Positions 51,001-57,000 of a stretch of DNA of 64,000 bases are shown here, piece after piece. Within the stretch, counting starts at the first letter, position 1, and every line of letters starts with the position of its first letter. This stretch comes from Escherichia coli (GTDB taxonomy: Bacteria > Pseudomonadota > Gammaproteobacteria > Enterobacterales > Enterobacteriaceae). Position numbers: made by a program. The stretch lies in NCBI RefSeq assembly GCF_045037415.1, contig NZ_CP173438.1; one strand, 5' to 3'.

Positions 51001-54000
51001 TTGTAAATGCAGCGTTCAACAATAATCGACTGTTCAGAAGCGCAGATCACACCATTATCGAAGGTTTTGCTGGTGATGATATCTTTCACCGCATGGTGGA
51101 TATCCGCACTGCGTTCAATAAATGCCGGACCGTTACCAGGACCACCGCTGATGGTCGGTGTGCCAGAAGCATATGCTGCTCGTACCATTCCTTCACCACC
51201 GGTAGCCAGAATCAGCGAAACATCTTTGCTATGCATCAGTTCCTGGGTTGCTTCCAGCGTGAGCTCGGTTACACCATCGACAATACCCGCAGGTGCACCA
51301 GCAGCTTCTGCGGCACGCTTAACGACTTCTATCGCCTTCCAGCTACACTGACGTGCGCCGGGATGCGGAGAGAAAATAATCGCATTACCGGCTTTCAGGG
51401 CGATCAGCGTTTTGTAGAAGATGGTGGAAGTCGGGTTGGTTGACGGCACCAGGGCGCAAATCACACCCAGCGGCACGCCCACGTCCATCACTTTTTGCTG
51501 TTGATCGTCATGAATGATGCCGACGGTCTTCATATCTTTGATGGCATCGTAAACACGCAGCGAGGCGAAACGGTTTTTCAGGACTTTATCCTGCCAGTTG
51601 CCGAAGCCAGTTTCTTCTGCGGCCATTTTTGCCAGTGCTTCAGCGTGGTGTGCTGCTTCCTGGGCCACGTTTTTCACGATGGCGTCGATTTGCTGCTGCG
51701 AAAAAGTGGCCATAATCGCTTGCGCTTTTTTGGCGTTACGCACCAGCACCCGCGCGTTCTGACGGGAGCGCAAATCGGTATCCAGTTCAATCATGAGTCT
51801 ATCCTTCATCAGACTAAAAGAGTGCAGACGGGGCGTGCCCTGTCAGGTCATGCTTTATGCTGCGACGCGATTTTTTCGATGTCGTTATGCGGGCGGGCGA
51901 TGACACGGGAGGTCACCACTTCACCGATACGTCTTGCTGCTTCAACACCGGAATCCACCGCGGCATTCACTGCGCCAACGTCGCCTTTTACCATCGCGGT
52001 GACTAGGCCAGAGCCGACGTTTTCATAGCCAATCAACTCAACGTTGGCGGCTTTACACATCGCGTCTGCCGCCTCAATACAGGCCACCAGACCTTTGGTT
52101 TCGATCAGACCAAGCGCTTCTCTCATTATGTTTTCTCCGGTTAATCGGTAATTTTGTAGTGCGAGACAATCTTGTTGATGTCATTGTGTGGACGCGCGAT
52201 AACCAACGACGTCACCACCTCGCCAATGCGCTGTGCGGACTCAACACCGGAATCCACCGCCGCTTTTACTGCGCCGACATCACCTTTCACCATTGCGGTA
52301 ACCAGACCAGAACCGACGTTTTCATAGCCAATCAACTCAACGTTGGCGGCCTTACACATCGCGTCAGCTGCTTCAATACAAGCCACCAAACCTTTGGTTT
52401 CAATCAGACCTAATGCATCACCCATGTTTCTTCCCTCCGGCCTTAAGCTTTATGTTTAATAACGATTTTGTTGATGTCGTTGTGAGGACGCGCGATAACC
52501 AGCGACGTCACCACTTCCCCGATGTGCTGTGCGGACTCAAGTCCAGAATCGACAGATGCTTTCACTGCGCCAACGTCGCCTTTCACCATCACGGTCACCA
52601 GACCAGAGCCGATGTTTTCATAGCCAATCAGTTCAACGTTGGCGGATTTACACATCGCATCCGCTGCGGCAATACAGGCCACCAGGCCTTTGGTTTCGAT
52701 AAGCCCTAATGCATCACCCATGGTGATCTCCTCAGAACAGGTTTTGTGATTCAGGAAAACCGTCCGTGACACAGCGTTAACTCACGGAAGCGGCGTTCGA
52801 ATGTCACTATAGAGCTCATGGAATTTTGTGGAATTTAAATCTGCTGACAGCAATGATTTAGAATTAAATTCTGAAATTTAGCTTTCAATACACTCTGATT
52901 TATGTATTTGTGCTGGAGTGGTGGGGAGGATTTTGTTTTTAATAATGCGCTTTTTGGCGTATTTTTTTCGCCGGGTATGTTTGTTGCTAAGTTGCTAAAT
53001 AATTACGAAAAGGGGGTAACAGCTACAGCGGTGAAGTGTGTTGGGGCTCATACTTTGGCGCAAACCCTAAACGCAAAAAATGCGCTTTTGCTCAGGGCCG
53101 TTGAGAAGGGGAAAATGGAATGCGTGGTACATCACAAATCGCCTGTGCTATCACGAAGTTAAAGAGTCGTGTTTCTCGTCAGGCGAAGGGGGGACGATGA
53201 AAGTGGTGAGCAATTCGTTGCGTAAGGCAGCCAGAAAAAACTAGTCTAATTTGCTGCCAGATTTAAGGGTACAGATCCAAAGCGGTGAATTAATAGAACT
53301 GAGCAAAATCGCTTTATCGTTCAGCTTCTGGGCGTTGAGGAACAGCCCGTCATGGCTGTCAGACATTTCACGCATAAAGTAGTCAAAAATCACATCTGGT
53401 GATTCATCTATCGATGAGGCGCTGGATTCCCACTGGCTGATGCGGTAATGGCGTTCCGTGGCGGAAACACGTTTACTGGTATAGGTAAATTTGACATAGC
53501 GTTGCAGGTACAGCCAGCCAGCGGCAGAGTCCGTGTAGCCTTCGAGCACCATCGAACCTTTACCCTGGCTGCCAAAGTTAAAGTGAATATTACCGTTAAC
53601 GTTCTCCTTTTCCATATTCTCAAAACGCATGATGCCTTTTGTTGAACAACTCATAATCCCTGTATTTTCAGCAGGGGACAACCGCCAGAAACTAAATCCG
53701 GAGGCGACAATAAACGCCAGGGCGGAAATAGCAAAGAAGGTACGCGGTGCGATTCTCATTACAGTTTCCAAGAGTAATAAAAGTAGTTATCGCAATAACT
53801 AAACGGGTTATTTTCATGCATAGCGCAGTGCGCGAGGAACACTCGCCCAAGGCCGTTGGTTTCCAGCCTGTCACCGTAGAAAAAAAGAAAACGCTCACTT
53901 GGTTTACAGGCGATATTTAGACGCTTACGGACTTCGTCATAATTTTTCTCATATGCCTTCACGCTTACTGAACGGCGCATTTCGTCGCTTGCCAGTAATT

Positions 54001-57000
54001 CGCACTGGCTATGAGAAAGTTGCGTCAAAGCGATGGGGCGCGCCTCGCTGATACCGAACAAATTGAAGGCTACCAACAGAATCGAAATGGTTAACAAACA
54101 GGCACCTGCAAAATACCAGTAAGCGTCGTGACGATGGGTGACTGGCGCTAATGTTGGTGGTGAAGACTCGGTATCCTCACTGGATGTTGGTACGTCAACA
54201 TCAGGGATTATGGATGGCTCTATAATTGCAGGTGGCGCAGGGGCTTCATCCAGTGGTTCGATGGATACATTCGGGTTTAGCTGCAGATAGCCGCGTGCAA
54301 CGGTAATGATAATATTATCAATACCATAGTGACGGAACGTCTTGCGCAGCATACTGAGATACTGATTCAGATTGCTGTTAGAAGAAGTTAATCCGTTGTT
54401 ATCCCAAACTTTTGTCAGTACCTCTTCGCGACTAACGATATCGGTATGATGCAAAAAAAAGTTGAGCAGCGCGCAGGACGTTATCGAGAGTTGGCAGTCT
54501 GGCTCAGTGCTTTGCGGTAGCGTAAGCGTGCCATCCGTAGCGTCATAAATGAAACGGGCATTGATGTTATAGCGCATCGCGACCTCAATCCATGGGACTT
54601 CACGCGGGAAGTGTCATCTTATTCAGTGAATCAACCAGTGCCTGACGATGTTCGGGGCTCATGGTGATCCCTTCCGTTAACTCAGACAACCAGATGCCAT
54701 CTGCGGTATAGCGCACCAGCGTTCCGGTTGGGCTATTATCCAGTTCATCGCCATTCGCTAAATGACCAAGCATCCAGTCTCGCCAGCATTTTCGCAGCAC
54801 CGGTTCATCGGGCATTGCCAGCGAAAGCACCATCAATTGACGGCTTTCTTGTGTGTCAGTCAGCGCAGAAAGATAGTTCACATATGCGCGAGTAAAACGG
54901 CCATAGCTTATATTGTCTTTTTGCATCAGGGCAGCGATGGCCTCTTCCATTATTGCCAACAACCGGGCAAACAAGGCGTAGATCAGCGCCTGCTTGTTCG
55001 GAAAGTGATGCAGTAATCCACCTTTACTCACGCCAGCTTCGCGGGCAACCGCATTCAGCGAGAGGGCAGCGATACCGTCACGACCAGCAATCATAGCTGC
55101 AGACTCCAGCAACTGCTGATACAGACGGATGGGATCTTTTTTACGATGTTGGGTTTCTGTATTCATAGGCAGAAGCATACCGACCAGACGGTATGTTTTT
55201 TTTTGATCGCTATCAAGGAGAAGCAGCTACCCATGAAGTGAGTATGGGTATTGCGTGTGAGGTCACAATTTGTCGTATAAATCCTACTGCTGCTGTTAAT
55301 TCTCCTGGTCTGCACAATGGTGGGAATCTGTTACCCTTTCGATGAACAGAAAATCCATAAAAAGATGATCAAATAACTTTTAATGACCTGAATGATGCTT
55401 TTTGAAATACAGAAGGCAAGCGAGAATGAACCGCCCCGGGGTTCCTAGAGAGTGTTTTATCTGTGAACTCAGGCTGCCAGCTCATCATTTCCGATAGAAG
55501 CATAATACGCTTTTTCTGCTTCTGCCGGAGGAGTATGCCTCAGCCTTCCCAGCAATCGTCGATTGTTATACCAGTCCACCCACGTGAGTGTGGCCAGTTC
55601 CACTTCTGCACGGTTTTTCCAGCTCTTACGGTGTATTACCTCCGCTTTGTAAAGACCATTGATGCTCTCCGCCATCGCGCTGCCATACGAGTCGCCTGTA
55701 CTCCCTGTTGATGCCAGCAGTTTTGCTTCTTTTAATCGCTCCGTATAGGCCAGTGACACATACTGAGAGCCTTTATCGCTGTGATGGATGGTGCCGGACG
55801 GACGACGGGCCCACAACGCCTGCTCCAGCGCATCCAGCACGAATGTCGTTTCCATGGACGATGATACCCGCCACCCCACGATGTATCCGGCAAACACATC
55901 AATGATGAACGCCACATAGACGAAGCCCTGCCATGTGCTGACGTAAGTAAAATCAGCCACCCACAGCTGGTCAGGACGTTCTGCCACGCACTGACGGTTT
56001 ACGCGGTCACCTGCGGCAACGGTTTTCCGGCTGACGGTAGTGCGGACCTTTTTACCCCGGAGAACACCGGAAAGTCCCATAACCGCCATGAGGCGCGCCA
56101 CTGTACATCTGGCCACCCTGATTCCTTCCCGTAACAACTGACGCCAGACTTTACGCACACCGTACACCTGATGATTTTCATCGTATACGCGCTGTATCTC
56201 TCTCTTCAGCCAGTCATCGCGCTGTGCATGTGCACTGCGTTTATCAGGATGATGTCGCTGTTGCTGACAGTGGTAATACGTTGACGGGGCAATATGCAGT
56301 TCACTGCATACCGGTCTGACCCCGTACTGCTCACGCAGCTTATCCAGCAGTGCCATCACTTTTTCCAGAGGCGGTCGAACTCCGCCTTCGCAAAATAAGC
56401 GGAAGCCTGGCGAAGGATATTGTTACTGCGGCGCAGTTCACGATTTTCACGTTCCAGCTCTTTCAGACGCTGACGTTCAGCGGTGGTAAGCCCACCATCA
56501 CCGCCTCCGGTATCCCGCTCATACTGGCGAACCCAGACACGCAGAGTCTCCGGCGTACAGCTAGTCTTTGGAGCAATGGAACAAATTGCCGCCCATTGTG
56601 AGTCATATTCGCCCTGACTTTCCAGAACCATACGAACTGCCCGTTGACGGACTTCGGGGGAAAAACGTGTTTTTTTAGTCATCCTGTTTACCTCTTTCTC
56701 AGGAAGTTTAGTCTCCAGGATTTCCGGGGCGGTTCAACTCCGTTGCCTCATCAGTTGTGGTCTACAGCAACATCCACCATTAAACCGCCAACACAGACTG
56801 TTCCGCGTTAAACGAGTGCGGCGGTACTTTCAGCCCGGAAACCTGGGGAGCGCGCTCGCAGGCATCAGTCTGTTATTTGTTGAAGGGGTTATTTCCTGCT
56901 CTTGTGAATGGAGTTACCGAGATAATGATTGGGTCGAAAGACTCGGCACGCCCTTTTTTTTATGTAAATTCCATAGGCTTAAGCGATGTAAAACGTTTAC

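Follow-up and report, generated by a model that had tools for sequence, protein, structure and literature searches.

The ToxR-like regulator CutX and its FidL-like partner CutY in the cutWXY operon of an Escherichia coli choline-utilisation cluster

Gut bacteria convert choline to trimethylamine, which feeds the trimethylamine N-oxide (TMAO) pathway that has been linked to cardiovascular and kidney disease. Because of this link to disease, the switch of the choline-utilisation (cut) operon is a possible non-lethal drug target. Three regulatory genes, cutW, cutX, and cutY, are located upstream of the first shell gene of a cut cluster in a 64,000-nucleotide stretch of Escherichia coli DNA (contig NZ_CP173438.1 of assembly GCF_045037415.1), and this whole stretch is referred to here as the window. 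In strain 536, these genes carry the names cutW, cutX, and cutY (Herring et al., 2018, J Bacteriol 200:e00764-17). Later papers citing Herring et al. (2018) call CutW-CutX-CutY a small regulatory operon and state that CutX and CutY activate the cut operon on choline. The genetics of strain 536 indicate that transcriptional regulators within the cluster are important for trimethylamine formation (a 2026 paper). A TetR regulator in type II clusters had already been noted by Martinez-del Campo et al. (2015). In Proteus, a stretch of approximately 580 bp that precedes the first shell gene acts as a choline-inducible promoter.

The protein family of CutY has been described in a separate context. 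Kinch et al. (2022) placed the FidL proteins of the MarT/FidL and GrvA/FidL pairs in the VtrC/ToxS lipocalin-like superfamily of "co-component" systems. The FidL class has a conserved disulfide that joins the first and last strands (Kinch et al., 2022). Choline and the cut genes are not mentioned in that work, and a search of the accessible literature found no paper linking co-component systems to choline.

The interval 53241-55178 of the window is exactly occupied by three co-oriented open reading frames (ORFs) on the minus strand. These are cutW (54600..55178), which encodes a TetR/AcrR-family regulator with an annotated length of 192 amino acids, cutX (53759..54577), which encodes a ToxR-like transmembrane transcription activator of 272 amino acids, and cutY (53241..53759), which encodes a FidL-like co-component of 172 amino acids when counted from its ATG. 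The longest ORF of cutY begins at TTG 53771. The stop of cutX and the ATG of cutY overlap in the sequence TAATG. A 519-bp intergenic spacer separates cutY from cmcA (52443..52721, minus strand, ATG 52721), the shell (BMC-H) gene that opens the main cut operon and on which the regulators act. The genes cutF, cutC, and cutD are found further downstream. The segment 52400-55500 was compared with E. coli 536 (NC_008253.1) and was 100% identical over 3101 bp; the full segment was found in 321 of the 5426 complete E. coli genomes. In strain 536, RefSeq labels the three genes as a TetR/AcrR regulator, a winged helix-turn-helix (wHTH) domain protein, and a FidL-like protein, with cutC and cutD adjoining; there, too, they stand in this order upstream of cmcA. 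The three genes make up the cutW-cutX-cutY regulatory operon described for the type II (GRM2) choline-utilisation cluster of E. coli 536. They have already been published for that strain together with their role, and the finding is therefore already known and does not represent new biology. The original prediction for this locus, made from the DNA sequence alone, had proposed a ToxR-type membrane-tethered regulator with a small overlapping partner gene, together with a TetR-family gene, upstream of the first shell gene. All of these are present in the arrangement that was described. It had also left unconfirmed whether this was the described regulator of cut loci, and the match to the published genes supplies that confirmation. 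The interpretation given in the prediction is supported, with periplasmic sensing of choline or trimethylamine as its putative part. It is likely that CutX and CutY form a ToxR/ToxS-type (VtrA/VtrC-type) pair that senses choline and activates the cut operon.

The architecture of CutX is that of a membrane-tethered one-component regulator. Residues 29-96 form an OmpR/PhoB-type winged helix (Pfam Trans_reg_C), and neither another Pfam domain nor a receiver domain was found in the protein. The winged helix is followed by a variable linker rich in Pro, Glu, and Ser (residues 105-151) and by a single hydrophobic segment (residues 152-176), which is estimated to be a transmembrane (TM) helix by Kyte-Doolittle hydropathy. 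The remaining 96 residues (177-272) are the periplasmic domain. It contains the conserved cysteines C192, C224, C251, and C262 and ends in the tail YCDNYFYYSWK. When a CutX profile built from 17 orthologues was searched against all PDB sequences, the best match was the DNA-binding domain of Vibrio cholerae ToxR (E 1.1e-5), followed by PhoB-family proteins, ArlR, and CadC. An assignment of CutX as CadC itself was rejected, as the protein scored 27.3 bits against an equivalog cut-off of 400 and does not have the CadC periplasmic domain. The aromatic C-terminal tail was also considered as a choline-specific cation-pi box. This was rejected because the motif is kept in paralogues that are located away from cut loci.

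The N-terminus of CutY is a hydrophobic helix, and the only Pfam match of the protein is FidL_like (3.6e-41). A CutY profile searched against all PDB sequences, ToxS included, gave no match at E values up to 10. Its relationship to ToxS was seen in the predicted structure. The AlphaFold model of CutY (predicted local distance difference test, pLDDT, 84) contains a membrane helix at residues 5-27, and then eight strands and one helix. In a Foldseek search with this model, ToxS of V. cholerae and V. parahaemolyticus were the top matches (E 1.5e-4), and VtrC was next. The original prediction of a ToxS-like partner is thus borne out by fold and not by sequence family, in which CutY is FidL-like rather than ToxS. 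Two cysteines, C38 and C163, were invariant in 20 sequences; in the model, one is in the first strand and the other in the last. These are the strands that the FidL-class disulfide joins, so CutY carries the conserved cysteine pair of that class. CutY is therefore modelled as a periplasmic lipocalin-like barrel of the ToxS/VtrC fold behind an N-terminal membrane helix. The periplasmic domains of CutX and CutY were also modelled together as one chain, with a 30-residue linker and a paired alignment from 36 loci. The fused model had a predicted template modelling score (pTM) of 0.80, and each domain had a pLDDT of about 87-90. This suggests that the two predicted domains form a defined heterodimer.

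The pair was found at cut loci well beyond E. coli. A scan with a CutX alignment, using one genome per species, identified 78 loci. Of these, 66 were orthologous (42-74% identity) and 12 were distant paralogues. The orthologues belong to 16 named genera: Kluyvera, Klebsiella, Raoultella, Aeromonas, Pantoea, Enterobacter, Cedecea, Erwinia, Yokenella, Enterobacillus, Proteus, Providencia, Moellerella, Pragia, Serratia, and Photobacterium. The cutY gene lies within a few bases after cutX in 64 of the 66 orthologous loci, and in the other two the available sequence ends inside cutX. The original prediction had staked itself on the pair not being absent from other cut loci; cutX followed by cutY was present in all 64 loci that could be scored. 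Wherever the contig extends far enough, cmcA, cutF, cutC, and cutD are downstream on the same strand. There are 17 orthologous loci without cutW, including most of those from Photobacterium. As cutXY is retained in these loci, cutXY is the core of the operon and cutW is accessory.

Conservation is not evenly distributed along the two proteins. The mean identity to E. coli 536 was 69% for the CutX winged helix, 18% for the linker, 40% for the TM helix, and 65% for the periplasmic domain. For CutY, it was 40% for the TM helix and 78% for the periplasmic domain. The periplasmic domains are well conserved and the TM helices are poorly conserved, which favours a function in the periplasm over contacts within the membrane. 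The two-gene arrangement also extends to distant relatives. All 12 distant CutX paralogues (28-33% identity) have a FidL-like ORF next to them, which abuts or, in most cases, overlaps the stop of the regulator gene. In a search of 1.84 billion representatives, three distant FidL-like proteins were each found directly after a Trans_reg_C gene. It appears that the module of a regulator and a FidL-like protein is obligate.

Some of the loci differ from the usual arrangement. In Pantoea coffeiphila (locus L044, 10001-16814) and Erwinia sp. JUb26 (locus L048, 10001-16741), cutX and cutY are followed by cutF, a short cutC, and cutD. About 800 amino acids of this cutC were matched, apparently without the N-terminal extension, and no cmcA shell gene was detected. 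These may be cut loci without a microcompartment that keep the same regulator pair. In a metagenome-assembled genome from the Enterobacterales (L079, 5637-11364), a distant CutX paralogue (29% identity) and its FidL-like partner are found just downstream of a short CutC. This CutC is above the cut-off of the choline trimethylamine-lyase equivalog (1153 versus 1050 bits), and an activase and an AI-2E-family transporter adjoin it. A second, divergent co-component pair may thus also serve choline lyase genes. Other CutX-like/FidL-like pairs, with about 30% identity, are located away from cut genes in Pantoea, Kosakonia, and Brenneria (L068-L078, approximately 10001-11330). They retain the C-terminal CDNFYY..W motif. 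In one case (L070), the pair has sugar/inositol genes on one side and a bacteriocin-type ABC exporter on the other.

The region upstream of cmcA is A/T-rich (GC 0.43-0.46) and contains the main cut promoter. The -10 hexamer of this promoter, TATAGT (52806..52811, minus strand), is located 90 nt upstream of the cmcA ATG. It was invariant in an alignment of the upstream region from 15 genera, and 55 of 57 loci have it at a distance of 74-193 nt before the cmcA ATG. Transcription is predicted to begin about 7 nt past the hexamer. Upstream of the hexamer, a candidate CutX-binding region (52832..52915, minus strand) consists of phased A/T-rich repeats in a fixed register with the -10. Closest to the hexamer, the repeat ATTTAAATT (52840-52832) overlaps a weak -35, ATTCCA. 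It is followed by CTAAAT at -50 (52861-52856), AGAATTTAA, a second CTAAAT at -70 (52881-52876), ATAAAT at -91 (52903-52898), and AGCACAAA, which is the last of the listed repeats; all are on the minus strand. The conservation of the region was explored with 38 dereplicated loci, from Escherichia to Photobacterium, that were anchored on TATAGT without gaps. The block ATTTA(A/T)ATT at -29 to -21, over the weak -35, and the block AGAATAAAA at -61 were both present in this set. The TAAAT-like elements are spaced by about 20-22 bp and so all face the same side of the DNA helix. A weak -35 beneath a conserved repeat is the look of an activator-dependent promoter. From sequence, the phased repeats are the candidate binding site of the CutX winged helix. 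The ToxR motif TNAAA-N5-TNAAA was tried on this promoter and was rejected, as the TAAAT spacing is about 20-22 bp and not 10.

Other features were noted between cutY and cmcA. A conserved hairpin, CCGTGA...TCACGG followed by GGTTTTCC, is present at the start of the 5' leader of cmcA (52764..52787, minus strand). By pair counting, 86% of the cells were paired, and compensatory changes were seen in 3 of the 6 pairs. The score of this hairpin, which was named by hand, was reached by no shuffle or slid register in the same counting. RNAalifold predicted no structure on a MAFFT alignment of the cmcA leader. In Photobacterium, the cmcA leaders contain, by eye, a different GC hairpin and then a T-run. 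The leader hairpin could be a stabiliser or an attenuator. A search of Rfam with positions 52400-55600 gave no match, and a simple terminator scan found no minus-strand terminator after cutY. Further upstream, about 170-280 bp from the cmcA -10, distal conserved blocks are found at 52983-53095. These include the tandem TTAGCAAC-TTAGCAAC (52998-52983, minus strand; TTAnCA...TTAACA in other genera), TGA-N7-CACA (53050-53037, minus strand), TTACC, and AGCGCATTTTTTGCGTTTAG. The spacer between cutY and cmcA is not of constant length: it measures 820-910 bp in Kluyvera (L002-L009), compared with 519 bp in E. coli and approximately 410 bp in Klebsiella. Another TATAGT is present in several of the Kluyvera spacers, at about 640-675 nt from cmcA on its upstream side.

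The regulatory genes appear to be under a control of their own. An FNR box, TTGATAGCGATCAA, is located upstream of cutW (55203..55216, minus strand) and is a perfect match to TTGAT-N4-ATCAA. It was perfect in 35 of the 48 cutW-bearing loci and had one mismatch in the other 13. The distance from the centre of the FNR box to the conserved cutW ATG was 42-44 bp in 46 loci and 41 bp in two. This spacing suits a class II FNR promoter whose cutW message would be nearly leaderless, with a predicted start at about 55166-55168. Most of the loci without cutW retain an FNR box upstream of cutX, and FNR can therefore be read as a putative conserved anaerobic input. A search of the accessible literature for FNR control of cut genes found nothing relevant. 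A CRP-like site, TGTGACCTCACACGCA (55252..55267, minus strand), is centred 50-51 bp upstream of the FNR box centre. It was found at this fixed distance in 45 of the 48 loci, with 1-3 mismatches to TGTGA-N6-TCACA and the form TGTGA-N6-nnnCA. The site can be assigned to CRP only provisionally.

The -10 of the cutW promoter, TATGCT (55179-55174, minus strand), is TATGCT or TATGAT across loci. It is covered by a palindrome, ATACCG-N6-CGGTAT (55177..55194, minus strand). This palindrome was perfect in 46 of the 48 loci with cutW, at an unvarying distance of 23-24 bp downstream from the FNR centre, and it is missing from 14 of the 17 loci without cutW. Of the cutW-less loci that have it, L021 has it in perfect form and L044 and L048 have it with one mismatch. 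L021 also appears, by eye, to contain a remnant of cutW. As the palindrome occurs together with cutW, it is read as the candidate CutW operator. ATG 55178, which is annotated as the start of cutW, falls within the predicted -10 element, and there is no ATG at this position in Proteus or Providencia. ATG 55166 is conserved in all 48 cutW-bearing loci. The annotated start is probably 12 nt too far upstream, which would give a CutW of 188 amino acids and a near-leaderless mRNA. The CutW protein has the Pfam domains TetR_N (8e-13) and TetR_C_28 (3.5e-21) and can be matched over its full length to a TetR-family regulator of solved structure (2yvh/2zoz). It was considered as BetI and rejected, as it scored 39.7 bits against a cut-off of 201.3 and only residues 21-96, the helix-turn-helix (HTH), align. 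An IS3-family transposase with a programmed frameshift (55469-56682) is located about 200 bp upstream of the CRP-like site, and the promoter is intact. Beyond this transposase are a broken nhaC that contains IS100, a remnant of psiE, and further fragments of transposases. The cut cluster thus borders the edge of an island rich in insertion sequences (IS).

The best-supported mechanism for the operon can be put together from these features. CutX and CutY would be located as a pair in the inner membrane, with CutY supplying the periplasmic lipocalin-like barrel and the CutX periplasmic domain docking on it. The complex would detect external choline, presumably by binding it directly in the periplasm. 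The cytoplasmic winged helix of CutX would then bind the phased A/T-rich repeats, which extend as far as the -35 region of cmcA, and activate the 13-gene cut operon. The cutWXY operon is probably transcribed from the class II FNR promoter with its upstream CRP-like site, and under this control the sensor would be confined to anaerobic, non-repressing conditions. CutW would repress or damp cutWXY through the palindrome over the -10. The cutX gene is said to be a positive regulator that is required for choline induction, and cutX and cutY, but not cutW, are reportedly required for choline degradation.

Choline could also be sensed in the cytoplasm. BetI is a choline-sensing TetR repressor and ToxS stabilises ToxR. 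If CutW were BetI-like, its release from the palindrome by choline would allow CutX and CutY to accumulate and activate the operon without sensing choline, and the part of CutY would be limited to stabilising CutX. CutW is a complete TetR protein, 46 of 48 loci have the palindrome over its own -10, the palindrome is mostly lost together with cutW, and BetI was the third-best of 24 NCBIfam matches; that match covers the HTH only, however, at 39.7 bits against a cut-off of 201. The reported finding that cutW is not required for choline degradation is also compatible with a CutW repressor. However, cutXY and the cut operon are kept in 17 orthologous loci without cutW, and the periplasmic domains of CutX and CutY are the most conserved, which is hard to explain if they receive no signal. 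Sensing by CutW is therefore regarded as unlikely. It is quite improbable that CutX senses choline indirectly, through contacts within the membrane with a choline carrier that holds or releases it, in the manner of LysP and CadC, and with CutY as an accessory. CadC is a weak relative of CutX, and the cut cluster does encode putative transporters that are important for trimethylamine formation. Yet it is the TM helices that are poorly conserved in both proteins (40%) and the periplasmic domains that are well conserved, the CadC periplasmic domain is not present (27 bits versus 400), and an obligate lipocalin-like partner marks the ligand-binding VtrA/VtrC class.

The signal could also be something other than choline. 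CutX and CutY might respond to a product, such as trimethylamine or acetaldehyde, or to a general envelope cue, or they might mainly displace H-NS from the A/T-rich promoter. The base composition and the phased A-tracts upstream of cmcA would suit the last of these, and ToxR-like regulators such as MarT have been described as H-NS antagonists. Induction occurs within 1.5 h of the addition of choline, whereas induction by a product would need prior basal activity of the pathway; this group of explanations is judged improbable. Several observations also weigh against the preferred model. To our knowledge, the known ligands of the superfamily are bile salts and not small quaternary amines. The motif CDN[FY][FY]Y..W is also found in paralogues outside cut loci and so is not specific to choline. 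The predicted heterodimer comes from a single-chain linker model. A simple sigma-70 promoter scan found neither the cmcA nor the cutW promoter; both have a weak -35, which is usual for activator-dependent promoters. With these points included, a choline-sensing CutX/CutY pair is still considered the likely explanation.

The analysis adds to the published description of the operon in several ways. CutY and, more tentatively, CutX are placed by fold in the co-component superfamily, their pairing appears to be obligate across genera, cutW is accessory, and two promoter architectures are described. These additions were not found in the accessible literature, and they amount to refinements that can be tested, not to a system of a new kind. 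For a FidL branch that has had no known signal, choline is a candidate ligand. The conserved FNR, CRP-like, and palindrome sites provide a testable explanation for the anaerobic use of choline. It is possible, though we hold this tentatively and at somewhat less than even confidence, that CutX/CutY would be the first FidL-class receptor of the VtrA/VtrC-ToxR/ToxS type with a known signal and the first to control a metabolic organelle and not virulence genes, with a barrel that binds periplasmic choline in place of bile salts and a three-input promoter (CRP-like site, class II FNR site, and CutW operator).

The pair can be compared with several known systems. MarT/FidL of Salmonella pathogenicity island 3 (SPI-3) and GrvA/FidL of E. 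coli O157:H7 each combine a ToxR-like regulator with a partner from the same Pfam family, FidL_like, as CutY. As with cutX and cutY, the genes are adjacent and co-transcribed, and the partner has the FidL-class cysteine pair. These systems control virulence and adhesion genes and have no known signal, whereas CutX/CutY controls a catabolic microcompartment operon with choline as the inducer. The distant FidL-type paralogue pairs have about 30% identity to CutX/CutY. CadC, the lysine/pH sensor of E. coli, is like CutX a membrane-bound one-component wHTH activator with periplasmic cysteines, and there is a weak sequence match between the two. It differs in having a much larger periplasmic domain and no lipocalin partner, and it senses lysine through LysP. 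The MerR-type activator Ddes_1352, found in the type I cut clusters of Desulfovibrio, also activates cut genes on choline. It belongs to an unrelated cytoplasmic family that is absent from type II clusters.

ToxR/ToxS of Vibrio has the same plan as CutX/CutY, with a wHTH, a TM helix, and a periplasmic domain in the regulator and an adjacent single-pass partner with a lipocalin-like barrel. There is no detectable sequence similarity between CutY and ToxS, and ToxS is the best match by fold. ToxRS differs from CutX/CutY in that its signal is bile salts and its targets are genes for porins and virulence. VtrA/VtrC is the bile-salt receptor of Vibrio parahaemolyticus, and the ligand presumed for CutX/CutY is instead a small quaternary amine. 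The identity to this pair is 4-5%. As in VtrA/VtrC-type systems, cutY is an overlapping second gene whose product is predicted to have an N-terminal TM helix and a lipocalin-like barrel.

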